64,000 bases of DNA, taken from Candidatus Bathyarchaeota archaeon (lineage in GTDB: Archaea; Thermoproteota; Bathyarchaeia; Bathyarchaeales; Bathycorpusculaceae). Within the stretch, counting starts at the first letter, position 1. Each line of letters begins with the position of its first letter. The notes under the pieces are model-generated. The model was not told the origin of the DNA, searched no databases, and was given only the letters and a program-made list of their open reading frames with translations. The position numbers and the translations under genes were made by a program. The stretch lies in assembly GCA_963717465.1 (NCBI GenBank), contig OY970340.1, positions 1,312,001 to 1,376,000 of the forward strand. Direction: 5' to 3'. Positions 28,224-62,247 of the stretch are shown here, piece by piece.

Positions 28224-29657
28224 ATGGATGGTTGGGCGAAAAGGGGAAGGCTTCAAACTTACATGCGTAAACTATTACCTAGAAGCTTCAAGTCAGTTTA
28301 CTTGCTATTCCTAGTACCTATTTTTCTAGCGGTACTATCCTGGCTTTATTTCCCCACTGTAGCTACCTGGATTATCGCTAACGTATTTCACTACCTGGCA
28401 CCTGCGTCAACAGCAAATCCAGTTTGGATGGGATTTGTCAGTTTCTTTTACAGTTGGTACACTTTAGCAATTGGAATTTCAGGCTTGTGGGTTGTAGCTG
28501 CTTACTTGTCAAGAAAAAAGCAACATGTGGAAAATGGGCATGGATTCAATCCTCTTGTTTCATTCATCATTCCAGCATTCAATCAGGAGAAAAACATTGC
28601 ACGATGCATCCGATGCCTTTTCAAATGCACAGAAAAATACGACGGCATATGTGAAGTCATAATTGTGGATGATGGCAGTACAGATGAAACTTACAAAGCA
28701 GCAGCAAGAGAAATACAACTGGGAAAAACTTCGCATCCGCTCATTGGAGCAAAAATTTGTCGGCATTTGTCAAATTTAGGTAAAATTGAAGCTTTAAAAA
28801 CAGGTAAGAACCGTGCAATGGGCGGTTTAATCGCGATCGTAGATGCTGATTCTGAATGGGCGCCTGAAACTCTGTTTTGGCTTGTAAATTACAAGCTTGC
28901 AAATGGCAAAAAAGCTTTAACAGGTTATGTTCATCCGAACGGGCAAGATTCTCATGGTAATTTGCTTGTAACTTTGCAGCGGTTGGAGTATAGTCAAAGC
29001 TTAGGCGTATGTCGCGCCGCTCAGAGTTTAGGAGATAATGTGTCTGTTGTCTCTGGAGCGATTGGGCTTTACGACGCTGATTTGCTTCGAAACATCTTGG
29101 CAGAAGGAAACATTCACAGTATAACCGAAGATTTGGAAATTACTCTTGAAATGCGTAAAAGAGGCGTAAAAGCCGAATACGTTAATTTTGCAAGAAGTGA
29201 CACTGTTGCACCTGTAAGTTTAAACGCGCTATGGCATCAGCGCTTACGATGGTTTACTGGCTGGTTACATAACACGTCTGGGATTTATCGTGATTTAATG
29301 AAAAAGCGTTCATGGTTCTCGGCCCTTATATGGTACTGTTACATATTCGAGTTTGCAGGCGCATTCATTTATTTGGGAACATTAATTTCATTCCCGTTTT
29401 TGTGGTATTTTTCCCCTGACCCAGTTCAATTCGGATTAAACTTACTAGTGTTTATTCCATACGGCTTAGTGATCAGCGTAATTAATCAAGCAATAGCATT
29501 AAAGTTTGCTTATGGCAGTTATACCTTTGGCGACTTACTATTCTATACACCACTTAACATTTTCCTAAGGTTAATCAACATGTTTGCGCGTTCTGAAAGC
29601 GTAGTCAGATATTTAATGGGAAACAACGGAAATTGGCATGGAAATTGGAAGAGTTAA
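28224..29657 (+). CDS. Processive GT2 glycosyltransferase
   Basis: IPAFNQE, DDGSTD, DAD, TED, QRLRW; flanking TM helices. Confidence 0.9.
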   Translation: MDGWAKRGRLQTYMRKLLPRSFKSVYLLFLVPIFLAVLSWLYFPTVATWIIANVFHYLAPASTANPVWMGFVSFFYSWYTLAIGISGLWVVAAYLSRKKQHVENGHGFNPLVSFIIPAFNQEKNIARCIRCLFKCTEKYDGICEVIIVDDGSTDETYKAAAREIQLGKTSHPLIGAKICRHLSNLGKIEALKTGKNRAMGGLIAIVDADSEWAPETLFWLVNYKLANGKKALTGYVHPNGQDSHGNLLVTLQRLEYSQSLGVCRAAQSLGDNVSVVSGAIGLYDADLLRNILAEGNIHSITEDLEITLEMRKRGVKAEYVNFARSDTVAPVSLNALWHQRLRWFTGWLHNTSGIYRDLMKKRSWFSALIWYCYIFEFAGAFIYLGTLISFPFLWYFSPDPVQFGLNLLVFIPYGLVISVINQAIALKFAYGSYTFGDLLFYTPLNIFLRLINMFARSESVVRYLMGNNGNWHGNWKS

Positions 29658-29706
29658 ACAGCGAAAGATTTTAACTACCCTTCAACTAATGAGGGCTGAA
29701 TTTACC

Positions 29707-30463
29707 ATGATTAAAGCAGTTTTATTCGACTTATTTGATACTTTGCTCTTAATAGAAAAAAGAAAAGGTTATAATTTCCGCGAAAAAAGTCGCCAAGGAG
29801 GCGATGTTGCCTCAGGTTTAAAAAAAATGCATAGTTTCTTAGTTTCAAAAGGCGTTAATGTTACTTTTGAAGAATTCTATCAAGCATACGTGGAGGCTCG
29901 TGATGCCCTTTATGCTAAGGCTGATGTGAATCTTGAGGAGCCTCATTTTAATGTTAGAATTGTTGACACCTTAAAGAAACTTGGCTTTAACTGTGACATT
30001 TCAAGTTCAATTGTGACTGGGGCAACATGCGTTTTTTATGAGGAATTTATGAAATACGTTCAAATTGATGAGTATGCTAAATCAGTTTTAGAAAAACTGC
30101 ATAAGGAAATACAAGCTTGGAATAATCTCAAACTTTGCAATTCCAGAGTGCGCATTAAAATTATTGTCTTTGCACGGTTTGGACGAACTGTTTGATTTGA
30201 TTGTTATTTCTGGTGCAGTTAACAAGCGTAAGCCAAGTCCAGAAATTTTCATGGATGCTTTAAAGGCGCTTGGAGTTTCTGCTTCCGAAGCGGCGTTTGT
30301 TGGTGATACAGCTGATGCGGATGTTGCTGGCGCAAAAGCGGTTGGCATGTGTTCAATTTATCTTAAGAGGCGTCTTGAGGAAGATTTAGAGATGTATCAT
30401 CCTGATTATATCATTGATAGTCTGAATGACTTGCCAGTTTTGCTAAGCAAAGTTAGTTTTTAA
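29707..30463 (+). CDS. HAD-superfamily hydrolase, split by one extra base near 30105
   Basis: FDLFDTL in the first ORF; KLGIISNF, RKPSPEIF, FVGDTADADV in the second frame. Confidence 0.85.
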
Positions 30464-32640: not shown

Positions 32641-33651
32641 GTGCGCGTGATGAATGCGAAAAGTGTGCTTGATCTTATAGGCAATACTCCAATGGTTGAA
32701 GTTAAACGTTTGAATCCTAATCCTAACCTTGAAATGTACATTAAACTGGAAAAATATAATCCAGGCGGATCAGTTAAGGATAGAATTGCTAAGTACATGA
32801 TTGCTCAAGCGGAAAAATCTGGGCAATTGACAAGTGGCAAAACTGTTATTGAACCAACCAGCGGAAACACAGGCATCGGATTAGCTTTAGTTTGCCGTGC
32901 TAAGGGGTATGATTTAATTTTAGTTATGCCTGAAACCATGTCTTTAGAAAGAAGACAAATCTTGATTTCGTATGGAGCTAAAATTCTGCTTAGCGAAGGT
33001 TCAAAAGGGATGGACGGTGCAGAAGATTTAGCACATGAAATTGTGGGTCGAAATCCTGACAAGTATTTTATGCCCAACCAGTTTGCAAACCAAGCAAATG
33101 TCTTAGCTCACTACGAGACAACCGGCGAGGAGATATGGCGAGATACTGCCGGACGCATTACCCATTTTATCGCGGGAATCGGTACCACTGGGACATTGAT
33201 GGGCGTTTCAAAACGGCTTAAAGAATACAATCCAGCAGTGAAAATAATCGGAGTTCAGCCTGAACAAGGCACAATGATCCAGGGATTAAAAGATCTAAAA
33301 ACCCAATATATCCCTGCAATTTGGAAGCCAGAACTGGTTGATGAAATCTACTACGTAAATCCGAAAGACGCTGAAGAAGCTTCAAGACTTCTAGCTCTAC
33401 AAGAAGGCCTCTTCGTAGGCATCAGCTCCGGATCCATATTCCACATTGCAGCAAAAAAAGCTAAAGAAATTGAAAAAGGCGTGCTTGTCGCCCTCGCTCC
33501 GGATGGTGGAGAAAAATACTTGAGCACAACATTATGCGACCCTGCTCTCTGTCTAAGCTGCGTTAAAAAATACGGAATTAAATGCTCATACAGGGACAGC
33601 AGCCCAATCATGAAAGGCGACAAATCAACCGTAGACTCAATTTCCTCATGA
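32641..33651 (+). CDS. cysK: PLP-dependent cysteine synthase (CysK/CysM family) with Cys-rich C-terminal extension
   Basis: NPGGSVKDR, EPTSGNTG, GIGTTGT, GISSG, PDGGEKYLS. Confidence 0.9.
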   Translation: MRVMNAKSVLDLIGNTPMVEVKRLNPNPNLEMYIKLEKYNPGGSVKDRIAKYMIAQAEKSGQLTSGKTVIEPTSGNTGIGLALVCRAKGYDLILVMPETMSLERRQILISYGAKILLSEGSKGMDGAEDLAHEIVGRNPDKYFMPNQFANQANVLAHYETTGEEIWRDTAGRITHFIAGIGTTGTLMGVSKRLKEYNPAVKIIGVQPEQGTMIQGLKDLKTQYIPAIWKPELVDEIYYVNPKDAEEASRLLALQEGLFVGISSGSIFHIAAKKAKEIEKGVLVALAPDGGEKYLSTTLCDPALCLSCVKKYGIKCSYRDSSPIMKGDKSTVDSISS

Positions 33652-33686: not shown

Positions 33687-34655
33687 TTAAGAAGAGCTGA
33701 TTATTCTACTCATTATTTCAGGAAAATCTAGAATGTTTTCTACGGTAACCATTTTGCAGCCTGAATCTGCTAGCAACTTGTTTCCTTCTATATAGTGGTG
33801 TAAGAATGGATTGAATTTGATGAAATGGATTTGAACATCCATATTTTGCAGGGCGTTAATATGTTCCATCGATTCTTCGACGTCTTTGAGTTCAAAACCC
33901 ATGTCTGAAAAGATTAAGCAGAATTTTGCTTGATTTCGGCTTAGAGGCGCAAATTCTTCCCTTGCGAATCTTACTGCTTTTGCAAGTTCTGTGCCCCCAT
34001 GCGGCTCCATCGCAAGCAACCTGTCTGTAAGTTCCATGGAATCTTTTTTTTCAGCGAATTTTTTAATGACATTTAGCTCATCAGAGAAAAGCGAAATAGC
34101 ACTTTGATCATCTCTTGGCAACCCATGAATTAATATTGCGCCACATATAGCGCTGGAAACTAGAACTCTGTAATCAAAGCTTGCACTCATATCTTGAAGA
34201 TACAAAACACTTCGACGTTCACGCCTAACTTGACGAGTAAGAAAATCATCATAATTGAGCTCTGAAATTTTTTTCCCTTCTGAAAAAGCGCGCTCAAGAG
34301 TTAGCTCAAAATCAATTGCTGAAGGGTCATCAATTCCAACCCTATATTTTCGGTTAGAATAACCCTTTTCCGGACCTTGTCCTGAAACATAAAAATTATT
34401 GATAAAATGTCGGGCATAGTACAATCCTGTTTTAGCCAAAGCTTCTCTTGCTCTTGCTAGTACAATTTTTTTCTCGCTATCATTATAGTCTTCGCGGTTT
34501 CTAAACCAGTCATTGAGCACTTTCTCATCACTGGCTTTGCCCATAATAACTTCGGTCAATTCAACGGCTGCTTGCTTAAGCCTATCTTCACTTGGCGCCG
34601 ATAGACTGACATAGGTTTTGACCGCCAATGACTGAGCTTCAGTCTCTCGTCTCAA
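33687..34655 (-). CDS. VWA-domain protein (MoxR partner)
   Basis: MIDAS DMSAS, GGTEL, FSDMG. Confidence 0.8.
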   Translation of the reverse strand: MRRETEAQSLAVKTYVSLSAPSEDRLKQAAVELTEVIMGKASDEKVLNDWFRNREDYNDSEKKIVLARAREALAKTGLYYARHFINNFYVSGQGPEKGYSNRKYRVGIDDPSAIDFELTLERAFSEGKKISELNYDDFLTRQVRRERRSVLYLQDMSASFDYRVLVSSAICGAILIHGLPRDDQSAISLFSDELNVIKKFAEKKDSMELTDRLLAMEPHGGTELAKAVRFAREEFAPLSRNQAKFCLIFSDMGFELKDVEESMEHINALQNMDVQIHFIKFNPFLHHYIEGNKLLADSGCKMVTVENILDFPEIMSRIISSS

Positions 34656-34872
34656 GATGAGAGGTAATGACCGCAGATTCTACGTAATCCTGCTCAGTTA
34701 AACATTGATGCTGCAAAAGCCTAGTAGTTAATAATCTTGCAATGGCGATGGGTTGTCTTGAACTTGGTTTGAAAGCTTCTGGAATAGTATGGGAACTACG
34801 CATTTGGTTACAGAATTCTTCAGCGAATTTCACTGGATCAACAATGCTTTCTTTATTCAATGCAACCCGCAC
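34639..34872 (-). CDS. Small protein resembling a stand-alone AAA+ lid
   Basis: PSSRQPIAIARLL...EQDYVESAVITS; overlaps both neighbours; paralog of 34853-35155. Confidence 0.6.
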   Translation of the reverse strand: MRVALNKESIVDPVKFAEEFCNQMRSSHTIPEAFKPSSRQPIAIARLLTTRLLQHQCLTEQDYVESAVITSHLETRD

Positions 34873-35155
34873 GCAAATTAGGCTTGATTTTCAAAATTAG
34901 TTTTGCATAAGTCTCTTTAGCTACTTCTTCAGCTATTTTCTGAATTTTAGGAAAAGACGTTACGACCGCTGCATCAACAAAATCTTCTGCTCGAAGCTTA
35001 TTGTTTTTGAAGTACCTGTAGGATAATAACTTTGATATTGCGATAGATTGCCGGGTGCTGGGTATTGTTACATCTTTGCCTTGACTTTGCTCACGAAAAT
35101 TGTTGACAAATTCAACAGAAAATTGTTCGATTAATTCGTGTGCTTCTATTTGCAA
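34853..35155 (-). CDS. Small protein resembling a stand-alone AAA+ lid
   Basis: PSTRQSIAISKLL...AEDFVDAAVVTS; overlaps MoxR stop. Confidence 0.65.
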   Translation of the reverse strand: MQIEAHELIEQFSVEFVNNFREQSQGKDVTIPSTRQSIAISKLLSYRYFKNNKLRAEDFVDAAVVTSFPKIQKIAEEVAKETYAKLILKIKPNLRAGCIE

Positions 35156-36054
35156 GTTAAACTCTTCCTAATCAAGGCTTTCAGGTTAGCCTCATTCCAT
35201 CGGTTATTGCGCTCAGTTACAGACCCTAACAGGGTTTCATACGCAATATCCACGAGAACATCATCAGTTAATAGGTCCATTTCGGCGTATCTTGAAGCCA
35301 CGCGTGCAATGGATATACCAGTTCGAACCGAGACAAACTTGGAAAACTCCTCGTGCTGTCTGGACTGGTCAACTATGTTGTGAATCTTTTGCATTAATTC
35401 GTAGCTAAGTTTGTTCTCTGGAGTGTTTGCAGCGATGATTTTAAGTTCAGTTTCTTTATCTGGGTAGCTTAAGCTTATCCAAACGTGAAGTCGATCTCTT
35501 AGCGCCTCTGAGATTCGGTGAGCTCCGGAGAATTCATAGGGATTTGCCACTGCGATGAAAACAAAATTGTCGCTTGCTCGGATTTTTCCAAGATGAGGGA
35601 TATACAAGGTTTTTTCTTCAAGGGGTTCAAGGAAGCTGTTTTGGCAAAATTCTGAAGCGCGATTCAGCTCCTGCGCGACAAAGACTCCACCGCCAACCAT
35701 TGCAAGTAATAATGGTCCTGGTTCAAAAGCTTCCATACAGTAGCCTTTGTTAACAAGGACTGCAGGGTTGAATGTTCCAACAAGATGGCTTGGGCTCATT
35801 AACTCGTCAAAGAACAATTCATAAAATGGTCTTTGAGTATCGTATGCGAATTTTCTGGCAAGTAATGATTTGCCTACACCAGGTGGACCTATGATTATCG
35901 GCGTTAATTTAGCTGATACTGCGTCATCTAAGAGTTCGTAAGCTTTTTTGTATTGCCCTTCGAGCACAATTTTTATTTCTGAAGGCCTAGGCGCTAAGTG
36001 AAGAGCAAACTGTTCCCTGAACAATTCGTTAGTATCACACTGTTTTTCCGACAT
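35146..36054 (-). CDS. MoxR/CbbQ-like AAA+ ATPase with atypical Walker B
   Basis: GPPGVGKS, FEPGPL, VFVAQELNRA, ANP, ALRDR. Confidence 0.88.
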   Translation of the reverse strand: MSEKQCDTNELFREQFALHLAPRPSEIKIVLEGQYKKAYELLDDAVSAKLTPIIIGPPGVGKSLLARKFAYDTQRPFYELFFDELMSPSHLVGTFNPAVLVNKGYCMEAFEPGPLLLAMVGGGVFVAQELNRASEFCQNSFLEPLEEKTLYIPHLGKIRASDNFVFIAVANPYEFSGAHRISEALRDRLHVWISLSYPDKETELKIIAANTPENKLSYELMQKIHNIVDQSRQHEEFSKFVSVRTGISIARVASRYAEMDLLTDDVLVDIAYETLLGSVTERNNRWNEANLKALIRKSLTCK

Positions 36055-36074
36055 TTTCTTCTCCTCGTCTTTGT

Positions 36075-36332
36075 CTATGGATAAAGCTTCTTTTTTATGA
36101 GATAACTCTGAGCTTTTTTTAACAACTCGTTTTCGTCAATTTTGCATTTTTCTCTTTCTTGACAAGTGTCGCAGATTGACTGGTCAGTTGTGACTCCGAA
36201 AAGTCTTATTCCACTCATTGTAAGCGATTGCTCAGAGGGTATGACGCTTACGGCTATGTTGATGCCTACGCAAAGGTTTATTTCCTTGCCGTTTAAGCCA
36301 TATACTTTTCCAAGCTCTTTTATTTTCAACAT
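36075..36332 (-). CDS. Small hypothetical protein with CxxC-x5-C motif
   Basis: CDTCQEREKC; first gene of the MoxR operon. Confidence 0.55.
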   Translation of the reverse strand: MLKIKELGKVYGLNGKEINLCVGINIAVSVIPSEQSLTMSGIRLFGVTTDQSICDTCQEREKCKIDENELLKKAQSYLIKKKLYP

Positions 36333-36707: not shown

Positions 36708-37650
36708 TTGAGTCTATACAGTGAAAATGGGGAAGAGAATTCTCTCCGCGTCCTAAAAGAAGTGCTTAGAAATATAGGAATTACGGGGAAAGCTGCGACA
36801 ATTTACATTTTCTTATTGAATAAAGGGACACCCCAACACGCGAAAGATATAACGAGACTAATGAGAACAAATAAGGCTTTAGTTTACCGCAGCCTGAAAT
36901 ATTTGCAAGCCAACGGTTTTATACTGTCAACGATGACGTTTCCAGCCAGTTTTGCTGCTATTCCTCTCGGGGTCATACTCGATAATGCCTCAAAAACTAA
37001 AAAAAGAGAAGCTCGGATGCTAGAAAAGGATAAAAAATTGATGAGTACAGTCATAAAATCGTTGAAAATTGCTGATACCCCTGTTGTGGACGACGAGTAC
37101 GCAATTCTTAGGAACCAGCATATTGCTCACCTAAAAGGCTATAGAGATGGTCAAACAAACGACGAATGAATGTTTGATTATATCTGATCGATTAACACGA
37201 CGTGAATATGATATTCCTGAAGGCATGCGAACGGCAGTTGCAGCTACCGTAAGGAAAAAGAAAGCCCAATTTAGGCTTCTAACTAATGTGGATTATTCAA
37301 CCCTTGGTTTAGCTAAGGAAATGGTTGCAAAATTAGGCATGTTAGGCGAGTACATTAAGATTCGGCATTTAAACTTGTCTCCAGCTTTGTTTCCAGGTTT
37401 CACTCTCAGCGATGAAAGTACAATAATCTTGCAATTTGATACGTGGAAGGGGATAGACTCGAAAAGCGCACTAGGGATGGATAAGCTACTTTTGACAAAC
37501 AACAAGGCAATCATTCGATTGGCACGGTTGTTGTTCAATAAACTGTGGGATGAATCAATCGACATCCGCGAAAGAATTGCTGAACTTGAAAGCATGAAGA
37601 AGGTAGATAAGGAAAGCGTTGGTGATTCATCGCTAAAACTAGCTACGTAG
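36708..37650 (+). CDS. TrmB-family transcriptional regulator, split by one extra base near 37137
   Basis: wHTH IYIFLL...VYRSLKYLQANG...PASFAAIP; effector domain with FNKLW in ORF 37147-37650. Confidence 0.8.
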
Positions 37651-37726: not shown

Positions 37727-39058
37727 TTAAAGAGGGTTTAACCGTTTTAGGGAATTAGTTGCGTCTTCAACTAAAGTTAAAACGCCATTGAAGCCTATAA
37801 GTGGTCTATAAGTTAGTATGATTTTTTCAGTGTACGGAAACGACGTTGGTATGAAAGCTTGGTGTTTATGTTCCATTGACTCTAATATTTGCTCCTCAAT
37901 GCTGCTTCCAAGGATTAGATTTGGCGTCTTATCCCTGAGGCTTTCTCTAATCATGTACTGATCAGGGCTAATCAGAACAGTTGTATCTAAAGAGTTTTCT
38001 TTGATGTACTGCTCTAACGAAGCACGGTTGGCATTTCCCCTTTCTCTAATGCCTATGACATCTGGATACATTCCCAAGTACTTATGAAAGAACACTGTAA
38101 GCGGTGCTACTTGTGAGGAGTCGCCAAACACTGCAAAAGTTAAGCCTTTTAATCCACCTGTTAAAGAAGATACGCGTTCCAATGCATTGTAGCATTTCAT
38201 TCTAACGTGTTTTGATTCAAGCTCGATTTTTTGACGAGAAAACCCAAAATAATCAGCAACCTTGCCAAACCAGTTCTCTGAGGCAGCAAGTCCAAATGGA
38301 GCCATTTCGCTTATGCCTAAACTTGGAATTCCGAATTCTGATTCAAGAAACTTTGCAACAGTATCGCCATATTCTTCGTATACAACAAGGTTAAGTTCAG
38401 CTTTGCTTGCCTGCTTAAGATTATCTATCGTTTCACCTGCTGACATGACTGAGAGCACCTTGACTCCGAGAAGATCAAGCGTCCGCTTTAATTCTGCAAC
38501 ATCGTTTTCCCAATTGTAGTGAAAAATGGTTGGTCCAATAATGTTGACGCTGAACGTTATTCTTTCATCGCTCTTTTTCACAATTGCTTTGAGAATTTCG
38601 ATTGTGGCTTTTTTGAAGCCTTCAGCGAATGATCCTGTAAAACCAGTGCTATCAATGGCAACTGTCGGGAACTTTGGCTGGGCGCTTTTTATGAAACCCA
38701 CAAGGTCATCTCCCGTTAATGATGTCCCGCAAGAGTTTATGACGCCTAGTAAATCGTAGTTTTCATTGTTGAGGTCGTGGATGGCACCTTTGATTTTTTC
38801 TTCTGCACCATGAACATAATCGTATTCGTCAATGTATGTGCAGGATGCTCTGGGTTGCCCGAAATGGTAGTTAGTTAAGTATTTTATGATATCGTGTGGG
38901 AAGAACTGTGGATCTTGCAGTTGAATAAGATGTGCTAAGTACGTTTTACATCCCAGAGGGCCATTGATTAATGCATGTGCTTTTCTGATTCCTTCAAAAG
39001 CCGCGACTGCTCCGGCAAGTGAATCTGGCCTATGCGGGGCTGTAAAATAGTCTTTCAT
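37727..39058 (-). CDS. Nitrogenase component-1-like oxidoreductase subunit (NifK/NflD-like)
   Basis: DSLAGA, NGPLGC, NSCGTSLTGDD, VNIIG, AELNLVV, PFGL, PLIGFNG. Confidence 0.85.
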   Translation of the reverse strand: MKDYFTAPHRPDSLAGAVAAFEGIRKAHALINGPLGCKTYLAHLIQLQDPQFFPHDIIKYLTNYHFGQPRASCTYIDEYDYVHGAEEKIKGAIHDLNNENYDLLGVINSCGTSLTGDDLVGFIKSAQPKFPTVAIDSTGFTGSFAEGFKKATIEILKAIVKKSDERITFSVNIIGPTIFHYNWENDVAELKRTLDLLGVKVLSVMSAGETIDNLKQASKAELNLVVYEEYGDTVAKFLESEFGIPSLGISEMAPFGLAASENWFGKVADYFGFSRQKIELESKHVRMKCYNALERVSSLTGGLKGLTFAVFGDSSQVAPLTVFFHKYLGMYPDVIGIRERGNANRASLEQYIKENSLDTTVLISPDQYMIRESLRDKTPNLILGSSIEEQILESMEHKHQAFIPTSFPYTEKIILTYRPLIGFNGVLTLVEDATNSLKRLNPL

Positions 39059-41254
39059 CAGATCTCCAATCCTCTGCGAATGGCATTCTTATTCTAGATA
39101 TCCACTTTTGAACATATATTAGCCCACTGTTAAACCCATATGTTGGGCAAAACGGCAAAATATCGTAGATGGTTTCTTGAGTTGGCGCCTTAATTGGCAT
39201 GAAATTCATTAAAACCAAGTCAGGTTTGTTTTCCACTATGTCTTTTTCATATCTTTCAATGGGGTAGTCGGTTTCGATGTTGACTCTGTCAGAGTACTTT
39301 GACTCAAAATGTCTCTCTTAAGTAAAAGACGTGGGATAAGCATACTTTTTGTATGTTTACGTTTAAATCAAGAAGCGTCGAAATAGCCCAGTCCACGTTA
39401 CTTGTTTGACTGAAGATCATTACTTTCTTGTTAGAGATGTATTTTTTTAGTTTTTGTAAGTTGCTTATCATAGCTGACTCGTGCTTGATTGATTAGGTTT
39501 TCAGCTTCTTCTTCTCTTCCGAATTTTGCTGCTATGGCTCTGGTGAAGGCTTCTGTCTGTTCAAAGGCTATGGGCAATGGAGCCTTAAGCGTAGGTACGT
39601 TGAAACGTTTCTCAAAAAAATCAGACAAGGCTTGAACTACCGGGTCAGTGGTTGCAGGAATGTTTACGCTGCCCTTCTTGAACTGTTTGATGTCATGTAC
39701 GCTTGTTGCCTTGATAAAGCGGCAATTCACTTTAATTCTTAAATGACTTAGGATTTTTTCCAGTTCTTCGTAGTTCCTGTCAGTGGCTGAAGAGAGTGGT
39801 GGTTCCCCAATGATGTTTACTGCATCGACTGAAGGCTGTATGTTTTTGTCTATAAAGTGTTCAGCTATGTTTGTGTAAGCGTTTAGCAATCCATTGTTGA
39901 AGTCTCCTCCCATAACGCCGTCAAAATTAACTCTTAGAACCTCAAGCCCATTCTTATTTAATTGTGCTGTTACCCTGTCAAAGTCTTCTCCGATTATTCC
40001 TGAAGGGCAAGAACTAATCACGAAAAAGGCATTGGGTTTCAACCTACGGTTAGTGTCAATAATCATTTTTTCAAGGTTGCCTTCAGCACCAAAAACTACA
40101 TCGCGTTCCCTCATATCTGTACAGAGAAGATTTGGAAAGATCAAGGTCTCGGGGTTCAAACTTGAACCCGTGCTCATTGTTGTGCAAAAACTATTGAAGG
40201 CACAACCTACTGGTGAATCCATCACGGAAACCCCGTCAAGGATTTGGCTAGCAACTGAATATGCTCCAGCAAGAGAACAGCCGTAAGTAGGTAAACGTGT
40301 TTTGGGAATGCTACGGGTCACATTAGGCTTGCTTGATGCAGCGCTTGTTTGGTTTAAACTTGAATAATTAGTGTTTGTTGCTTCGTTGCTTCTTTGGAAT
40401 TGTGGTACTACACTTTTTCGTGTGATTTTTTTTCCGTAGCAAAATTCGCTAACGAATTCTTCAAGTTCCTCATCCTTTAGAGGTGTGGGTATTACTGGTG
40501 TTTTATTGTTTTCAATCATGTTAGCTATTGATCTGTAAATGTTTGCAAGCTCTGAGTTGGGCGCGTATTCTATTACGGTTTTTGATTCAAGTTCAGCGGC
40601 TTGAACAAGTTCGCTTCTGGGTATGAACCCAATCATTTCGGTGCCGATCTTTTTTGCGAAGGCAGCGATTAGTTCTTGTTCTTTTTTGGTTCCTCGTTCA
40701 TTCCCTATTACTCCCGCCAGCTTGCCGTGAATATTTGAGTGACTTTTCAAGCCCTTGGCGATGTTGTTGGCGGCGTATAAAGACATGAACTCTCCTGAAG
40801 TGATTATGTAAACTTGATCAGCAAATCCTTCTCGCATTGGGACAGCGAAACCTCCGCATACGACGTCCCCAAGAACATCGAAAAAGACGAAGTCAAAATC
40901 GCGGGTGTTTAGCCCTTTTTCTTTGAGAAGGTTGACCATTTGAATTATGCCTCTTCCCGCGCATCCAACGCCTGGTTCTGGTCCTCCGGCTTCGATGCAT
41001 TTGATGCCTTTGTAGCCGGCAAGCATGACTTCATCGAGGCCAACAATTCCTGAAGTATTTAATTGCTCAAGAACGGTTGACTGCATGAAGCCACCAAGAA
41101 CGAGACGGGTTGAATCGTGTTTTGGGTCGCAGCCGATCTGCAGTACTTTCCGGCCTTTCTCAGCTAAAGCGCATGTGACATTTGAAATTATAGTTGATTT
41201 TCCTATGCCACCTTTTCCATAAAAGGCAACGTTTACCAATCTTTTCCCATCCAT
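39030..41254 (-). CDS. nifH: Fused NifH-like Fe protein + NifD/E-like subunit (nitrogenase-like, group IV type); two single-base insertions near 39450 and 39308
   Basis: [45 protein letters not shown]; then [23 protein letters not shown]. Removing one base in each of two homopolymers joins ORFs 39431-41254 and 39030-39236 into about 740 aa. Confidence 0.85.
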
Positions 41255-41552
41255 ACTCCTGAATCTATGAGTGACTGATTATAACTTAATTATCTTCGGC
41301 TGGGAAATAGATTATGTTAGTCAACATTAAAACGCACTGATTCAGCCGCATCTTTAGAATTCCATTGCTACACGAAAAATATGAATTCTATTTAAAAAAA
41401 GAAAAAGATTTGAGCTTGTATCCCTTAAGATATTTATAGTCAAAAAGCTTTTAGTCGCGTGGTCATCCAAGAATTGCTAACTTTTTTTGCATTTTAGACA
41501 AACTAAGGCATTGTTCCCTCAGGTGTAATGATTGTGAGTCACGGGGTAATGT

Positions 41553-42451: not shown

Positions 42452-44119
42452 ATGTCCAAATCTAAGGTGAATTCAAAACCCGTTTTAATTCTAAGAGAAG
42501 GCGCCAGCAGCCATGGAAAAGATGCTCAGTTAAGCAGCATAAGAGCTGCTCGTGCTGTTTCTGAGGTCCTGAAAAGTTCGCTTGGGCCAAAAGGAATGGA
42601 CAAGATGTTGGTGAATAATTTTGGCGATATAATCATTACTAATGATGGTCGTAAGATGATTCAGGAAATGGATCTTCAGCATCCTGCGGCTAGAATGTTG
42701 GTTGATGTTGCTCAAGCGGTTGATAATGAAGTGGGGGATGGTACCACAAGCAGTGTTGTAATAGCCGGCGAGCTTCTAGCAAAGGCTGAGCAGTTAATCA
42801 GTAAGGGAATACATCCAACGATTATTATTGATGGTTATGAGAAAGCGTCTGTCAAAGCTTTGGAGGCACTTGAAAGCATAGCTATCCCATTGACTATTGA
42901 GGATAAGGATGGGCTAGAAAAGATAGCCGCCACCGCATTAGAAAGCAAAATAATTGCCAATCTCAAAGAATCCCTGTCAAAGATTGTTGTGTCAGCGATT
43001 CTTAGCGTTAAACGCGAAGTTGATGGACTAAACATAGCTGATCTGAGCGATGTTATGGTGGAGAAAAAGCTAGGTGAATCGCTGGCAAGCACAAGATTAG
43101 TCAAAGGAGTGATCGTTAACAAAGAGTTGCTTCATCCAGCCATGCCCAAACAAGTCAAAAAGGCGAAAATTGCCCTAATTGATAGGGCGCTGGATATTGA
43201 AAAAGTGCAGTTTGATTCCAAGCTGATGATTGAAAATCCAGAGCAAATGGAAGAATTCATTAAACATGAAGAAGCAATCATTGGACGATTAGTTGATAAG
43301 ATTGCAAATTCAGGTGCTAACGTTCTCATTTTGCAGGAAGACCTGAATAAAATAGCATATTACCTCTTAGCGAAGAAAGGGATAGCTGCAATTAGACGGG
43401 TTAAACAGCCATTAATGAGAAGCATATCCAAAGCCACTGGTGCACATATCGTATCAGATTTTGATGTCTTATCTGAGAAAGACTTAGGCTACGCAGAGCT
43501 AGTGGAAGAGAGAAAGATTGGTGATGACAAGATGCTTTTCATTGAGGAATGTAAAAACCCGAATTCTGTAACTATCCTAATTCGAGGGGCTAACAAGCGG
43601 GCCTTAGATGAAGCTGAAAGATCAATCCATGATGCTCTATGCGTTGTACGGGATGTCATAAAAGAAGAAAAAATTGTTGCCGGTGGCGGAGCACCAGAAA
43701 TAGAAGCTGCAAAAGCAGTTAGAAAACTTGCATTTACTTTTGCTGGGAAGGAACAGCTTGCAGCAATGGCTTACGCGGAGGCTCTTGAAATTGTGCCAGA
43801 GGTTCTCTCAGAAAATGCAGGCTTGAGCCCGATCGATATTCTGCAGGAACTGAGAAACCGTCATGAAAAAAATGAATTATGGGCTGGAGTCAACGTGTTT
43901 GAAGGAAAAGTTCAGGATATGAAAGCTCTTGCAGTCTACGAGCCATTATCCGTCAAAAAACAGGTCGTGAAATCTGCTACTGAAGCAGCTGTAATGATCC
44001 TTAAAGTTGACGAGTTAGTTTCTACAAAAAAGCCGCTTAAAAGAGAAGAGCCCCCTAAAGGCGGACGTGCAAGAGAAGAATATCTGCGTGAACGCATGAA
44101 AACATTTCCAATGTTCTAA
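42452..44119 (+). CDS. ths: Thermosome (group II chaperonin) subunit
   Basis: LGPKGMDKM, TNDG, VGDGTTS, DEAERSIHDA, GGGAPE. Confidence 0.95.
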   Translation: MSKSKVNSKPVLILREGASSHGKDAQLSSIRAARAVSEVLKSSLGPKGMDKMLVNNFGDIIITNDGRKMIQEMDLQHPAARMLVDVAQAVDNEVGDGTTSSVVIAGELLAKAEQLISKGIHPTIIIDGYEKASVKALEALESIAIPLTIEDKDGLEKIAATALESKIIANLKESLSKIVVSAILSVKREVDGLNIADLSDVMVEKKLGESLASTRLVKGVIVNKELLHPAMPKQVKKAKIALIDRALDIEKVQFDSKLMIENPEQMEEFIKHEEAIIGRLVDKIANSGANVLILQEDLNKIAYYLLAKKGIAAIRRVKQPLMRSISKATGAHIVSDFDVLSEKDLGYAELVEERKIGDDKMLFIEECKNPNSVTILIRGANKRALDEAERSIHDALCVVRDVIKEEKIVAGGGAPEIEAAKAVRKLAFTFAGKEQLAAMAYAEALEIVPEVLSENAGLSPIDILQELRNRHEKNELWAGVNVFEGKVQDMKALAVYEPLSVKKQVVKSATEAAVMILKVDELVSTKKPLKREEPPKGGRAREEYLRERMKTFPMF

Positions 44120-46127: not shown

Positions 46128-46592
46128 CTAACTACTCGGAACAGTTTTTACGAATTTGTTTTCTTCTTCGGCTTTTTCAGCGTCTATTTTATACCATTCT
46201 AACGCTTTATCTCCAGTTAAAAGGTTGCTTAGTTCCGCATCATAGTTGGAAGGTTTAATTATTGCAAGCCAGCCTTTTTCCCAAGGATCATCAACAAATG
46301 CATTAGCACCTATGCGATCAATCTCTGGATTGGTTGCAATAACCGTACCCGAAACGGGAGAAACAATTGGTCCAGTGTATTTGCGAGATTCGATAACTCC
46401 GACTTTTTTCTTTTGCTTTACGATAGTTCCTTCGTCAACCATTTTGATGAAATAAATTTCATGGGCTCCTCTTGCGACAACTTCGTCGAAACCAATTCTT
46501 ACATTGCCATCTTGTTCCTTTTTAACCCAGACATGATCAGTGTTATAGTATAGTTCAGGCTTAAATTCGAAACCAAATACTTTTGTCATCAA
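46128..46592 (-). CDS. gcvH: Glycine cleavage H-like lipoyl-carrier protein (stand-alone)
   Basis: YYNTDHVWV, VRIGF, IESRKYTGPIVSPVSGTV (lipoyl Lys kept), DPWEKGWL. Confidence 0.88.
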   Translation of the reverse strand: MMTKVFGFEFKPELYYNTDHVWVKKEQDGNVRIGFDEVVARGAHEIYFIKMVDEGTIVKQKKKVGVIESRKYTGPIVSPVSGTVIATNPEIDRIGANAFVDDPWEKGWLAIIKPSNYDAELSNLLTGDKALEWYKIDAEKAEEENKFVKTVPSS

Positions 46593-46634
46593 ATCACTCT
46601 CTTCATCGTCATTATTAAAATAAAAAAATGGTGA

Positions 46635-47897
46635 TTATTTCAAAGGTAGTTTGAATAACTCCTTTTCTAATTTCAGCGTTAAATCAATCTTTTCAACTGG
46701 GGTCTGTACATCATAATTGTTGTGTATACTCACTCGTTGTCCTTTTGTTGTTGCTTTTGCACTGTTTACAATTCTCATTAGCTCATTTTTGATATCATCT
46801 GGACTTCCATTAAGGACTGTTCGAGTAGCAGGATAGGTCATTAGTACGACATTTGGATAGTTATTGAGCGTTTCGAAGCCTTGTTCAATTGCACCACTTG
46901 TTTCTGCGAACATAACTCCGCCACCGCCATTTTCTTGCATACATGAACCACAAGCTTCTAGAGTACCTTTTGGACCACCTAAAGCTGTATATGGATACCA
47001 ACCCTTATCGGTAACGTATCTTATGCTTGCACCATAGTGTTCATCGAAATTCTTCTTGAATTCATCAGCTGTCATATAACCTCCAGCGCCATCGCACCAC
47101 CAAACAATGTTACCTTTACCGTTATCATCTAATTGATCCCCAAGTATTGGAAGCATTATATCGATTCTTCTGTGAAGCACAGCAGTTGCACATTTGAAAG
47201 CTAAAGTAGCCAATTCTGGATCAGTTCTTACAGCAAGCAAGAATTCCTTAATGCCTAGCAAGAAGCCTGCGGCGCTAATTTGACCAGGGCAACATGCACC
47301 CCAAACAGAGAATTGGTCGCCTAAGTGTTTGATTCGCATTTTGGTGACCCACATGTTCACTGGGAATAAGCCTTGTTTTGCTGGGTCAGGTAAATTATCT
47401 AATAGAATTGTAGATCTTCTTTTGTTTTAGCGAACGGTTCAACCTGTAATGGTGGACCATGCTCTACAAAACGGAATTTCCGGCTAAGAATATCTTCACC
47501 AAAGGTAACTGGAGAAGAATACAAAGAATCCATTGGAAATCTAGGCATAAAACATTACCTCGCAAATCCACATGAGTGCGGGATTATTTAGTATGTCTTT
47601 CTGTGAAATAACTGGCGGTGATGGGGCAAAAGAGTCTATAACGCGACCAATGAGGTTTTGAGTTACAGAGAAAGTTGCTGGAATATGATCGACTTGTTGA
47701 TCTGTATAGAAGTTTTTAGCTACCAACTCTCTTGGATTGTACTTTTCCTTCTTTATTCTTTCTAAGACTTTTAATCGAGCTTTCTCTATAATTAATTCTT
47801 CGTATTCATTGAAACTAACTCCAATGTTTTTTGCATTCCATGTCTTTGGATAATCACCGTTTACTTCCTTCGCGTCCCATTGAATTACATCTTTCAT
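46635..47897 (-). CDS. UroD/MtaA-fold methyltransferase-like protein, split by one extra base near 47544
   Basis: LPDPAKQGLFP, CCPGQISAAGFLLGIKEFL...DPE, TPVEKID; collinear with the intact paralog at 62979 once one C is removed. Confidence 0.75.
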
Positions 47898-47899
47898 TT

Positions 47900-48622
47900 T
47901 TAACCACCTCCCTTTGATTTTTGTTCTTTTAGTATTCGCATTAATTCACTAACTTTTTTGAGTGCATCCTCAGTTTGTGCACCAAATGCATCTATTTTGT
48001 AAGTTTCTACGTCACCGTAAGAAGCGGCTTGCCCACCATCAATGATTTTTATTTTGTCTCGTATTCCAGCCTTTTCACATTCCTCTGTCACGCTACCTAT
48101 GCCTACTCTGGCCATTCCCATTGAGCAACTGATACCAATTATATCGGCTTTTTTCATCTTGGCTTTTATAGCAAAAACTTTTGGAGGAATATCATAGCCC
48201 AGATCAATTACTTCATAGCCTGCTGCAGCTAACATAGATCCGATAATTTGTCGTCCGATATCATGCACATCTCCCTCAATGGTGCCCAGAATAACTCTGC
48301 CTAGGTTAGCTGCATTGCTATATTTCTTGGCTAATTCTGGCCTTAACACATTTGAGCAGGCAGTAAGACATTCTCCAATCATTATTAAATCAGATAACAT
48401 TATGGGATTTTCATCTTCCTTTGTTTTTGTTTTTTCTTCAAAAATAGTCGCCGAATAATCCCTTTTTGTGATTTCTTTAGTCCAATCGAGCAGATTCTTT
48501 TCAAGCAGATCCATAGGGTCAGCGCCTAAGCCCAAAGCTTTCTGTGTTAATTCTGCACATTTTTTAGGGTCTTGCGCGTAAAAAGCATCTTTTAGTTCTT
48601 TTATTGCTGATTCAACGGACAT
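47900..48622 (-). CDS. Corrinoid (B12-binding) protein, divergent MtaC-like
   Basis: GTIEGDVHDIG (DxHxxG), VIDLGYD, GISCSM, IIDGGQ; N-terminal cap domain. Confidence 0.92.
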   Translation of the reverse strand: MSVESAIKELKDAFYAQDPKKCAELTQKALGLGADPMDLLEKNLLDWTKEITKRDYSATIFEEKTKTKEDENPIMLSDLIMIGECLTACSNVLRPELAKKYSNAANLGRVILGTIEGDVHDIGRQIIGSMLAAAGYEVIDLGYDIPPKVFAIKAKMKKADIIGISCSMGMARVGIGSVTEECEKAGIRDKIKIIDGGQAASYGDVETYKIDAFGAQTEDALKKVSELMRILKEQKSKGGG

Positions 48623-48683
48623 ACTGCTTATCCTCTTTAATCTTATCGACAGGCTAGAAAATGCAAAAATAATTTATAGAGAA

Positions 48684-49598
48684 TTGTTTATATCAAAAGT
48701 TACAGATAGGTCGAAAAAATTGAATGCTCTAAGAGGGAGTAGTATTAGCAAAGATTTGATCGTAAATACTCTTTCAAAAATGGGCTTAAATGAGAAAGAA
48801 GCAGAACTCTATATTCTTCTTGTTAGGTCTGGACCAAAGATGGCAAAAGACCTTAATAATATAATGAAATGTAATAGAGTGCATTTATATCGTATGCTTA
48901 AAGATCTTCAGATGAAGGGCTTGGTTGAATCCACTCTTGATTTTCCAGCCGAATTTAACGCTGTTAAACCAAGGATAGCAATTGACTTGTTTTTAAGTTC
49001 AAAGAAGAAAGAACTCAATTTAATTCAGAAGAACAAGGCACAAATAATTGCATCTTTAGAAGAAATTCAAGCGGAAGAGCCTCTGACAACAATAGGGAAA
49101 TTTGCTGTTATTGAAGGGATGGATTCGCTTGTTTCAAAAAGCTTGCAGATGTCCAAGGAGACCAAAAAGGAGCTTTTATTGGCTCATGACAAATTAGCTT
49201 GGATGATTGAAGACTTTGCTGGTGATTTCGGTGTTCATTTGAGAAATGCAAAGAAAGCACGAGCGTATGTAAGGCTATTAACAACATCAGCTAAAGATAA
49301 TCTACAAATGGTAAATCAAATACGTGCAAAGAATAAATCATTGGAAAATTCTTTTGTTGTGAGGGTTCTTGACTTAGAACCATCACTATTTCAAGATTAT
49401 TTAATAAGGGATGAGGAAGAAATCCTTTTCAGTTTGACTCCTTATGAAGACCTAAAAGTAACGAAATCATCTGAGTACAAAGGATTATGGACAAATAATC
49501 GACAATTTGTACGATCTATGAAAATGCTTTTTGAGAAAAACTGGAAAGAAGCACACGAAATTAAAAGTCTTAGTGAGAAGGGTATTGTGAGCAGTTAG
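48684..49598 (+). CDS. TrmB-family transcriptional regulator
   Basis: GLNEKEAELYILL...LYRMLKDLQMKGLVES; IRDEEE, LWTNN, FEKNW. Confidence 0.9.
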   Translation: MFISKVTDRSKKLNALRGSSISKDLIVNTLSKMGLNEKEAELYILLVRSGPKMAKDLNNIMKCNRVHLYRMLKDLQMKGLVESTLDFPAEFNAVKPRIAIDLFLSSKKKELNLIQKNKAQIIASLEEIQAEEPLTTIGKFAVIEGMDSLVSKSLQMSKETKKELLLAHDKLAWMIEDFAGDFGVHLRNAKKARAYVRLLTTSAKDNLQMVNQIRAKNKSLENSFVVRVLDLEPSLFQDYLIRDEEEILFSLTPYEDLKVTKSSEYKGLWTNNRQFVRSMKMLFEKNWKEAHEIKSLSEKGIVSS

Positions 49599-51286: not shown

Positions 51287-52470
51287 ATGTTTTTAAAACG
51301 TTGGATCATTTTTGCATGGATATTTTTGGTTCTTCTTTTGTTCTTTAGCGAAGTCTTATTTTGTCAATTATCAACCAGCCAGTTGGTAGCACAAGAGAGT
51401 TTCACTTTGCCCTGCACTGTTGCTATGTATGGGAACGCTTGGGATGGCGTAATTGCCTTTGGATTGTCTGGACCCAGTAACTACTTGGTAGTCATGAGCA
51501 CCCAACGGTACCTTGCTGACTTATCACACTTCCAAGCGGCGTTATGGCGTTGCCAAGAACAATGCTACCGATAGCCTTCTCTTTCAAGGCGAACCTCAAG
51601 TTGATGGCGCCACAACAGCTCCAATTTATGCTACACATATCTGGAACTTTACTTCAAATAGTATCCAATCTTTTCCGAATGTTACTGGACACCACGAAAT
51701 TGATTATGACCCAGTTAACAATACTTTCCTAACTTTACAGAATTATGTCCGAAAGGTTGGAAATAATTCCTATCTTATTGATAAAATTGTGCAGTTTGAC
51801 GTATCGGGTAATGTTCTCTGGCGTTGGGATGCATACGACTATATACCTCTAAGCGAGTCTGATCCATTTAATCTAACCTCCACACTTAACGGAAAGACTG
51901 TGATTGATTTTACGCATGCGAATTCTCTGATCTGGGATTACAACGATAGCATTATTTACCTGAACATTCGAAACACAAACACCTTCTACAAGATTAATCA
52001 AACAACCGGCAATGTAATTTGGGCATGTGGCCAATTTGGCAATTTTTTCCCTCGTAGATTCATGGAACGCAAGTCTCAAGTTTGTGGTACCACAGTCATG
52101 ACCTTGAACAAGTAGCTCCTGATGTTTTTACTGTGTTCAATAATGATTTTGATAACACAACTAATCCAAACAACGCTAGCAGTCAACTGATCGAGGTCTC
52201 ATTAAACGAGCAGAATTATACTGCCCGCGAAACCTTCAGTTGGACTGCACCTGAACAATATTACACTCAATATCTGGGCGCAGCCATAATATTGCCCGAT
52301 GGAGATTGGATGGGTGACTTTGGCAGCTCTACGCATGAATTTTCAGAGAATGCTCCTTGGGACTTCAATAACACAAGAGCAGTTATAGTTGAAGTAAACG
52401 GACTGGGCAAATAGTGAAAACCATAACATTTCCATCTGGCTGGTTGTTTTATCCATTGTGGTCATATTAG
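51287..52470 (+). CDS. Aryl-sulfotransferase (ASST) family protein, multiply frameshifted and possibly truncated
   Basis: GHHEI, VLWRWDA, DFTHANS, NIRNTNTFYKIN, HSHD, VFNN across ORFs 51287, 51513 and 52082. Confidence 0.7.
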
Positions 52471-55543: not shown

Positions 55544-55545
55544 AT

Positions 55546-56742: not shown

Positions 56743-56821
56743 ACTCGTCTTCTCCTTATGGAGGATTCTATGAGAGGAAATTTAACTCTTTGTTTGTATG
56801 TGATGCATACTAATAATTCGC

Positions 56822-61021: not shown

Positions 61022-61085
61022 TAGTAATTTTACTTACAATCAAAAGTATAAAAAATAGTTTTGACAAGTCTTCATAAAAAAAGGG

Positions 61086-61592: not shown

Positions 61593-61760
61593 AATAGAAA
61601 AACTCTTTTTTACCCATCAACTTAATTTTTTTCAAGAATTGCAAATAAAAATCAAGAAGATAAAGGCTGTTCAAGTTTTTATTTCTGCTAAAGGCAAAAG
61701 CTATAGTTGTTTATAAAATAAAAAAGAAGATATGACGCAAGGAAAGTATTTTAGCAATGT

Positions 61761-62120: not shown

Positions 62121-62247
62121 TCTTTCCACCTTAATACTTTCTCTAAAAAACATCTATTTAAAACTGAACTAATATAATTATTTACAAACAAGAGAATAAA
62201 TGTTGATTTTACATTAACTTTATAGATAGTTTCGACTAACATGAGTA

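Follow-up and report, generated by a model that had tools for sequence, protein, structure and literature searches.

What does a nitrogenase-like enzyme reduce when the site for the nitrogenase cofactor is missing? The question is posed by two overlapping genes in the genome of a Candidatus Bathyarchaeota archaeon (assembly GCA_963717465.1, referred to here as G000), within a 64,000-nt stretch of contig OY970340.1 (positions 1,312,001 to 1,376,000) that we call the window. The pair lies on the minus strand, and positions below are window positions unless a genome or contig is named. As judged from sequence, the locus is a two-gene nitrogenase-like reductase, in which a gene for a NifH-like Fe protein fused to a NifD/E-like subunit (the fused D) is followed by a NifK/N-like gene (the partner K). 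We consider it reasonably probable that the pair uses ATP and a [4Fe-4S]-type cluster to reduce a corrinoid or another tetrapyrrole, with the fused gene probably intact in the organism. The features of the locus, with lengths in amino acids (aa), are as follows.

39030..41254, minus strand: whole fused gene (NifH domain, linker, NifD-like domain); three frames as assembled, read-through of about 740 aa
39431..41254, minus strand: longest single frame of the fused gene, 607 aa; both domains are represented within it, ahead of the first break
40442..41233, minus strand: NifH (Fe protein) domain, aa 8-271; P-loop at aa 13-20; Cys98 and Cys133
40280..40441, minus strand: low-complexity linker, aa 272-325, 54 aa
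39033..40279, minus strand: NifD-like (component 1, alpha-type) domain with Cys326, Cys351 and Cys416
39451..39457, minus strand: first +1 frame break, one base too many within ACAAAAA
39306..39309, minus strand: second +1 frame break, a T4 run where relatives imply T3
37727..39058, minus strand: NifK/NifN/BchB-like partner, 443 aa, intact
33687..36332, minus strand: possible accessory block (85-aa open reading frame [ORF], MoxR AAA+ protein, two small paralogues, VWA protein)

An earlier note on this DNA, made from the letters alone, had described an intact NifH domain joined by a Ser/Thr/Asn-rich linker to a component-1 domain, with an overlapping second subunit downstream and two indels in between, and profile searches bore this out. 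Pfam Fer4_NifH (PF00142) matched aa 8-271 of the 607-aa ORF (E = 5.6e-108); the P-loop GKGGIGKS begins at aa 13, and the Fe-protein cluster cysteines are Cys98 and Cys133. Ser, Thr or Asn make up 20 of the 54 linker residues. Oxidored_nitro (PF00148) matched aa 326-598, covering profile positions 1-263 of 399, so the domain is incomplete in this frame; it continues in frame +1 at 39307-39492 and then in frame +2 at 39033-39317, both on the minus strand. The 443-aa partner gave a full-length Oxidored_nitro match (E = 6.2e-70) and no other Pfam domain, and its start precedes the end of the D frame by an overlap of 29 nt.

None of the three parts reached an NCBIfam cut-off. The H domain, which is 53% identical to bona fide NifH, scored 378 bits against nifH (cut-off 394) and 363 against CfbC (cut-off 402). 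The D domain scored 91 bits against nifD (cut-off 654), and 40 against CfbD TIGR03282 (cut-off 268). The best score of K was 144 bits against BchB (cut-off 490); the nifK score was 47 bits (cut-off 427) and the BchN score 41 bits (cut-off 420). The absence of nifB, nifE and nifN from the window, claimed earlier, was confirmed among the 66 window ORFs scanned. Genome-wide, Oxidored_nitro matched the fused gene, its partner and one CfbD, with no nifE or nifN. A NifB-like ORF does occur in the genome, below its cut-off and 320 kb from the pair, near mcrA. This radical S-adenosylmethionine (SAM) gene (327 aa; 315.7 bits, cut-off 343.65) is at G000:C1:1672159-1672953, 7 kb from mcrA.

The fusion is genuine and is a conserved trait of a family. 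Using a search restricted by length, we found that about 96 of the 120 best matches listed (hand count) carry both Pfam domains in proteins of 660-1010 aa. Bathyarchaeia top this listing; the named bacteria are Desulfocicer vacuolatum DSM 3385, Acidobacteria, Myxococcales, Desulfobacterium and Oscillospiraceae. We then assembled 25 related loci of at least 6 kb each, 7 from genomes of the same genus and 18 from metagenome contigs. An initial profile scan of contigs with the fused alignment had mostly picked up, through the NifH motifs, true nif operons and group IV systems, which served only as references. An ORF with NifH motifs lies directly ahead of the K gene in 25/25 loci; 23 of these ORFs are 705-779 aa long, one is a short ORF call (678 aa), and one is split. 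The linker is unconserved in the 24 fused relatives, ranging from 46 to 94 aa with a median of 59. A profile of the partner K retrieved, at E = 1e-30, 501 representatives (50%-identity clusters) from 1.84 billion cluster representatives.

Other arrangements of the same parts also occur. Three proteins of 948-1010 aa are NifH-NifH-D (P0063, P0067 and P0083), three of 486-807 aa are tandem NifH-NifH (P0064, P0076 and P0092), and one of 968 aa is an apparent H-D-K (P0072). An unfused sister system is found in Dialister succinatiphilus YIT 11850, with separate H (272 aa), D (441 aa) and K (426 aa) genes (L077:9992-21758).

The architecture is already known, and the window adds one member rather than a new kind. 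A family of fused NifH-NifD/E-like proteins with a NifN/K-like partner was noted in Archaea, Firmicutes and Deltaproteobacteria by Dos Santos et al. 2012 (PMC3464626), and the window pair has the same architecture and gene order, with no contradicting feature. A 2024 fusion survey (PMC11237513) records a NifH-NifD/E fusion in Methanomassiliicoccales, Methanosarcinales (where split forms occur too) and Methanomicrobiales, and its "cluster 443" corresponds to the fused family as well. Neither of these two papers provides a tree, ligands, context or function for the family; they carry a "data not shown", and fused sequences are filtered from the phylogeny. A 2026 review of nitrogenase-like enzymes (PMC13474568) does not contain the terms "fused", "fusion" or "Bathyarchae", and the only fusions mentioned in the Group VI paper (Meheust et al. 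2020, bioRxiv 10.1101/765248) are of radical SAM genes and a hydrogenase. Our literature search on the function of the fused family found no paper.

We next turn to the cluster-ligand positions. The cysteines in GCSL, PVGC and SSCP of the fused D align with NifD Cys62, Cys88 and Cys154, and are numbered Cys326, Cys351 and Cys416 by counting from the translation plus the offset from an intact relative (P0002). All three are Cys in 10/10 fused D rows. In K, the NifK positions Cys70, Cys95 and Cys153 are taken by Asp12, Cys37 and Cys110, respectively. The window pair has, as the earlier note had counted, three cysteines in D and two in K, which amounts to five of the six P-cluster cysteines, with Asp at K position 70. 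The NifD Cys275 position is occupied by Thr (NIPATT), on which our own alignment and HMMER alignments to the solved MarD and NifD chains agree, and the His442 region of NifD is a gap in the fused D; both had been called correctly by eye. Among the 10 fused D rows, position 275 is never Cys (it is Thr, Ser, Ala, Asn or Tyr), whereas all NifD, NifE and main group IV D rows keep Cys there. In these alignments the site for FeMo-co (NifD) or for an L-type cluster (MarD) is absent from the fused D.

A census of 127 near-full-length K representatives showed which of the remaining ligands are constant. At the Cys95 position, 117 of the 118 representatives aligned there have Cys. Position Cys70 holds Asp in 80/127, Glu in 7/127 (Asp or Glu in 87/127) and Cys in 22/127, and the Cys153 position is Pro in 76/127 and Cys in 32/127. 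The most frequent triplet is D-C-P (64 representatives), followed by C-C-C (21), E-C-P (7) and D-C-S (5); D-C-C, the type in the window, was found in 4. A carboxylate that alternates with Cys at one K position looks like a cluster ligand or a cluster-adjacent residue. By this count, the minimal conserved ligand set at the P-cluster site consists of three Cys from D and one Cys from K, with a conserved Asp beside them. We infer, by analogy with related enzymes, that the pair would hold one [4Fe-4S]-type cluster at the D/K interface, like NifEN, DPOR and COR, and no complex cofactor.

To place the pair in the superfamily, we built D/K trees in which NifD, K, E, N, ChlN, ChlB and CfbD references were labeled by NCBIfam cut-offs. 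The MarD-type reference was a Ruminiclostridium hungatei D protein (L024) that matches the solved chain 9fmg_A at E = 3e-90; a literature listing assigns 9FMG to a methylthio-alkane reductase (MAR) preprint. The main tree had 54 rows (LG+G4; support given as ultrafast bootstrap [UFBoot]/SH-aLRT), and a first tree included 9 of 19 chosen fused proteins. All 20 fused D domains tested formed one clade (95/97) with the D of the window inside it. The nearest neighbors of this clade were CfbD (96/76, on a long branch and unstable between trees) and the unfused D of D. succinatiphilus (98/94). Across the split from the fused D, alongside K-type rows, lay NifD/E (100/100) and the group IV clade (95/86) that includes the MarD orthologue. 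The partner K subunits formed their own clade (100/100 for 4 rows in the 54-row tree, 99 for 7 rows in the first tree) outside NifK/N, and neither the fused D nor the partner K grouped with ChlN or ChlB. The H domain fell in an archaeal fused clade (7 rows, 99), outside the clade of NifH and group IV NflH (98), CfbC and ChlL. A tree of this kind had been proposed in the earlier note, and in it the pair is not inside a characterized clade. The fused clade is, by these placements, outside every characterized clade tested in a reference set built from Nif, Chl, Cfb and MarD-type proteins (COR, IsrDK, NfaDK and labeled Group VI not being in it), and its separation from CfbD is weak.

These results bear on whether the pair could be an N2-fixing nitrogenase, which we regard as next to impossible. 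The H domain comes close to the nifH cut-off, but the FeMo-co ligands are missing, only five of the six P-cluster cysteines are present, D and K score far below every Nif cut-off and fall outside the Nif clades, and the genome has no nifE or nifN and only the sub-threshold NifB-like ORF. The earlier assignment to a nitrogenase-like enzyme that does not fix N2 therefore stands, given the loss of Cys275 and His442 and the positions outside NifD/E and NifK/N; its proposed fit to groups IV/V does not extend to the group IV clade that holds MarD, which excludes this D.

True-nitrogenase-type clusters do occur in the genus. Four same-genus genomes (G020, G007, G014 and G030; loci L107, L108, L110 and L111, respectively) carry nifH, a 305-aa radical SAM gene, D, K and a homocitrate-synthase-like (HMGL) gene, a cluster absent from G000. 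Its D is above the N2-ase-Ialpha and alt_nitrog_alph subfamily cut-offs, and its closest relative is the NifDK of Methanoperedens.

CfbCD combines an ATP-driven Fe protein with a catalytic part lacking an M- or L-cluster site and has a tetrapyrrole substrate, and CfbD is the nearest labeled outgroup of the fused D clade, with the instability noted above. However, CfbD has no K partner and CfbC is separate, whereas the D of the window has a K partner and scores 40 bits against the CfbD cut-off of 268. Moreover, the CfbCD role is already filled in G000, because a bona fide cfb/hem cluster is present, whose CfbD scores 448 bits against TIGR03282 (cut-off 268). That cluster (L099; G000:C1:1558000-1577999) looks complete for F430 and tetrapyrrole synthesis, with hemA, hemB, hemL, hemC, a cobA-hemD fusion, CbiX (cfbA-like), a Mur-ligase-like gene (cfbE-like), a NifH-like cfbC, and CbiA/GATase_3 (cfbB-like).

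DPOR and COR resemble the pair in having three Cys from the N/D-type subunit, a carboxylate on the B/K-type subunit, and neither Cys275 nor His442. The DPOR cluster is ligated by three Cys and one Asp. The best solved-structure match of the K of the window is ChlB (E = 1.6e-19), and fused relatives adjoin a class I chelatase, as in chlorophyll synthesis. The carboxylate is not in the same place, however: ChlB has Asp at the NifK Cys95 position (Asp36 of BchB), where this K has Cys, and this K has its Asp at the Cys70 position. It also lacks the C-terminal PCP_red domain, and the BchB and BchN scores are far under their cut-offs. Group VI, compared by published descriptions, likewise lacks Cys275 and His442, has a proposed tetrapyrrole role and occurs in Myxococcales; most fused members, being of the D/E-C-P type, share with it at most four of the six P-cluster Cys. 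The published identity of Group VI NflH to NifH is about 40%, with a sister position to group V, and Group VI clusters are rich in radical SAM genes (bioRxiv 10.1101/765248; PMC13474568). In contrast, the H of the window shares 53% identity with NifH and stays apart from ChlL in the tree, and no such richness in radical SAM genes was seen around the fused clade.

NifEN has the same conserved set, with three cluster Cys from the E/D-type subunit and a single one from the N/K-type; the NifN rows have no Cys at the Cys70 and Cys153 positions. This would fit a scaffold or maturase, for example for the methyl-coenzyme M reductase (MCR) of G000, that would assemble or insert a metal cluster or cofactor without reducing a metabolite. 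The genome does hold mcrA, the NifB-like gene and the cfb cluster, and a MoxR/VWA pair is nearby. NifEN, however, needs nifB and nifH as separate genes in nif clusters, and NifE sits in the NifD/E clade and retains the Cys275 equivalent that holds the cluster precursor, which the fused D lacks. The fused family is present in bacteria that are not methanogens (Desulfocicer, Acidobacteria, Myxococcales, Oscillospiraceae), and seven same-genus genomes carry the pair, yet mcrA was found in 0/60 other genomes of the genus. We therefore consider a scaffold role very improbable. As a separate observation, G000 is the only one of the 61 genus genomes searched with MCR alpha.

The gene neighborhoods of the 25 related loci point to a substrate class. 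Peripla_BP_2 genes (often several), a FecCD permease and an ABC ATPase adjoin the pair in 13/25 loci; BtuF/FecCD-type transporters are a class that imports cobalamin, haem and siderophores. CobN (1235 aa) with ChlI-like and ChlD-like genes lies beside the pair in 3/25 loci, and CbiD, CbiG and four tetrapyrrole methylases do so in 2/25. CbiZ, a corrinoid-protein activase (RACo) and a URO-D-like gene were each seen in 1/25. Altogether, tetrapyrrole, corrinoid or metal-chelate genes recur in 19/25 loci, one of which has the URO-D-like gene only. The unfused system of D. succinatiphilus shows the same association, in the order H-D-K-CobN (1316 aa)-radical SAM (349 aa)-ChlI-like (342 aa)-ChlD-like (640 aa). 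One locus of the 15 scanned (L161) has a cobalamin riboswitch (RF00174, 67.6 bits; gathering score 31.5) directly upstream of an operon in which permease and ATPase remnants, the fused gene and its partner are all on one strand. Judged by these neighborhoods, a corrinoid or a related metal-tetrapyrrole is the most likely substrate.

Two further observations concern these loci. L161 has two cobalamin riboswitches on the same strand, at 4716-4887 and 6257-6381; the first heads a 105-aa ORF and a Cys-rich 194-aa ORF, and the second heads the truncated permease/ATPase and the fused pair. The transporter ABC ATPase beside the fused pair (L100-L106 and L148-L152), with its counterpart at G000:C1:2191223-2192594, is 442-470 aa long and has about 200 extra C-terminal residues without a Pfam match at the thresholds used.

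The remaining 6/25 loci, which have no tetrapyrrole-related neighbor, are what favors the alternative that the enzyme modifies a ribosomal peptide or another non-tetrapyrrole substrate. Inspection by eye of the window's small ORFs around the pair showed no repeat peptide, and the 19/25 loci with tetrapyrrole, corrinoid or metal-chelate genes argue the other way; we rate this alternative as very improbable, marginally below the scaffold role.

The earlier note had also weighed two kinds of chemistry for the pair, reduction of a C-S bond or of a tetrapyrrole, on the strength of a neighboring cysteine synthase and corrinoid modules. The neighbors of the relatives support the tetrapyrrole half. 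The other half would make the pair an organosulfur (C-S bond) reductase serving sulfur acquisition, like methylthio-alkane reductase or isethionate reductase. A PLP (pyridoxal phosphate)-dependent cysteine-synthase-like gene does lie at 32641-33651, and group IV nitrogenase-like genes are often near sulfur genes according to PMC13753814. The MarHDK system shares the H/D/K logic of the pair, and MarD (9fmg_A) is the best solved-structure match of D (E = 2.5e-24). Yet the cysteine-synthase-like gene has a counterpart in 0/33 related loci, and no sulfur gene recurs among the neighbors of the 25 relatives. MAR (Group IV-C) has six cluster cysteines and a Cys270/His428 pair and requires MarB (PMC13753814). 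The D of the window instead has Thr at the MarD Cys270 position, the pair has five of the six Cys, D is in a separate clade from the MarD orthologue, and neither marB nor a radical SAM or NifB-like gene is beside the pair in the window. In isethionate reductase (Group IV-F), D supplies a single Cys, at the Cys88 position, and K supplies three (PMC11423573), compared with three and two here; this comparison was made by the published pattern. An organosulfur role appears very unlikely, if slightly less so than a scaffold.

What G000 itself contains fits use, rather than synthesis, of corrinoids. CobN and CbiD had no match in the G000 genome, which has many corrinoid proteins, and the window has three B12-binding proteins with methyltransferase-like genes. 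G000 is a corrinoid user that is apparently unable to make the ring, so a role on imported corrinoids is preferred to one in de novo ring synthesis. The genome has four Peripla_BP_2 genes, none near the pair, and an orthologue of the transporter of the relatives at 2.19 Mb. Our best guess for the substrate in G000 is accordingly an imported corrinoid. CbiJ (PF02571) was found in 0/61 genus genomes, with or without the pair, and the profile detected it in only 2/14 control genomes, so its detection is weak.

The corrinoid modules of the window are three of a similar kind, at 46128-49595, 54920-57721 and 60131-63998. Each has a B12-binding protein, methyltransferase-like genes and a TrmB-family regulator, and two of the three have a glycine-cleavage-H-like protein.

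Downstream of K, on the same strand, is the possible accessory block, comprising an 85-aa ORF, a MoxR-type AAA+ protein (302 aa), two small paralogous ORFs and a VWA protein (322 aa). The same MoxR/VWA block (54-88% identity) lies directly upstream of the fused pair on contig L147, on the same strand. Since L147 is from a close relative, this counts as one extra observation at most.

Several points weigh against a corrinoid or tetrapyrrole reductase. For every family member, the substrate is drawn from neighboring genes alone. The pair in the window is not adjacent to transporter, chelatase or cbi genes, and the window offers only the corrinoid methyltransferase modules within 10-25 kb and the nearby MoxR/VWA block. 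The 12 archaeal loci with a transporter are closely related to one another (50-54% identity) and represent few independent observations, so there are perhaps five or six independent lines of context evidence. The riboswitch is support from a single locus, and 6/25 loci have nothing telling nearby. Association with B12 synthesis is weak across the genus, with CbiD in 6/7 genomes that carry the pair and in 14/29 that do not. Finally, the five candidate ligands could fit a cluster other than [4Fe-4S].

If the pair is nevertheless such a reductase, its mechanism may be pictured as follows. The Fe-protein domain brings the ATP site and the two Cys for a subunit-bridging [4Fe-4S] cluster. Two tethered Fe-protein domains would dimerize around this cluster and dock over the D/K interface cluster, and ATP hydrolysis would gate low-potential electrons through the interface cluster straight to a substrate (a corrinoid or another tetrapyrrole) in the D/K cavity, on the model of DPOR, COR and CfbCD. 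More speculatively, the enzyme could be (HD)2K2, with one Fe-protein dimer per two catalytic halves; alternate docking would fit the 46-94-residue tether and the H-H-D forms. Reduction of Co(II) to Co(I) ahead of adenosylation is one chemistry that could cover both the uptake and the chelatase contexts. Ring reduction would fit the superfamily precedents equally well, and the data do not separate it from Co(I) formation. More tentatively, and for the family as a whole, we propose as a possibility short of probable that the fused proteins carry out an unrecognized ATP-driven step in B12 handling, using an interface iron-sulfur cluster with Asp or Glu where nitrogenase has Cys. Such an enzyme could be a corrinoid reductase acting after uptake (BtuFCD-type) or metal insertion (CobN-type), and it could supply Co(I) for adenosylation or reduce the macrocycle.

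As assembled, the fused gene is broken twice. Both indels reported earlier are +1 shifts (39451-39457 and 39306-39309). The read-through with X at each break is 740 aa and is gap-free and colinear with P0002 (757 aa) and P0003 (682 aa), both intact. Compared with P0003, the D part is 83% identical ahead of the first shift, 90% from there to the second and 80% beyond it; the out-of-frame D segments have no stop in their proper frames. There is no sign of relaxed constraint downstream, because the out-of-frame segments are as conserved as the in-frame part. Programmed frameshifting was considered, since the second site (TTT TGA G) looks like a shifty stop, and was rejected: a single frame suffices to read P0002 and P0003, and no motif of that kind occurs at the first site.

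The window has at least 11 frame breaks, and 9/11 are +1. The tally comprises one each in the ArsB, ilvC, HAD hydrolase and TrmB-like genes and two each in the methyltransferase-like, arylsulfotransferase-like and fused genes, plus a doubtful pair at 34.8 kb. The other split genes, mostly with single extra bases, are as follows.

21941-23297: ArsB
23415-24420: ilvC
29638-30463: HAD hydrolase
36708-37650: TrmB-like
46635-47897: methyltransferase-like (three frames)
51287-52411: arylsulfotransferase-like (three frames)

Outside the window, the sole ileS of the genome is split into two overlapping pieces (G000:C1:1739903-1742435), the sole mcrA (MCR_alpha, 200.9 bits) is in three frames (G000:C1:1663418-1665069), and the orthologue of the transporter ATPase of the relatives is also split. 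Since a living cell needs its essential genes whole and ileS is nevertheless split, the breaks are read as assembly errors. The G000 assembly is a single 3.05-Mb contig with 88% completeness, compared with 97% and 96% for the same-genus single-contig genomes G003 and G014. In a sampling of orthologues, 2/23 G000 targets were split versus 3/80 in the loci of the relatives, a small sample in which two or three of the calls in relatives look like paralogue artefacts.

A recent pseudogene, in which the frameshifts are real and the D domain is not made, would also fit the closeness of the two +1 shifts, which are about 145 nt apart (under 150 nt) in the same gene, and other non-essential genes of the window have two breaks each (arylsulfotransferase-like, methyltransferase-like). 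Nor do reads decide the matter: contigs of two public DNA runs span only parts of 38063-38425 and 39999-41300, and no read or contig covers 39273-39514. However, joint loss of ileS, mcrA and ilvC would be unexpected or impossible for a living cell, single extra bases account for most breaks in the window, the out-of-frame parts are stop-free and equally conserved, and neither the H domain nor the K gene is damaged. Both frame breaks are probably uncorrected single-base insertions of the assembly, with the gene probably intact in the organism, an explanation we hold to be several times likelier than a real pseudogene, which we consider unlikely. More broadly, the G000 assembly carries many single-base insertions, and its gene breaks should not be taken as biology.

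Two other features of the window are recorded here. A 1884-aa protein encoded at 1791-7442 (minus strand) combines DUF4011, an AAA_11/AAA_12 helicase, an MTES_1575 nuclease and DUF3320, and two thermosome paralogues lie at 42452-44119 and 57925-59868.

The nitrogenase relatives of known function are few, comprising N2 fixation, chlorophyll, F430 and two sulfur-scavenging enzymes, yet the fused family has many members. Cultured strains carry it or its sister system (Desulfocicer vacuolatum DSM 3385 and the gut bacterium Dialister succinatiphilus YIT 11850), and the fusion series H-D, H-H-D, H-H and perhaps H-D-K offers a stable electron-transfer complex for structural work on Fe-protein docking. 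If the reductase proposed here does act in B12 handling, it would be the first nitrogenase relative assigned to cobamide metabolism, and if the corrinoid link holds, the family would supply a missing piece in the handling of salvaged or newly metallated corrinoids by anaerobes.

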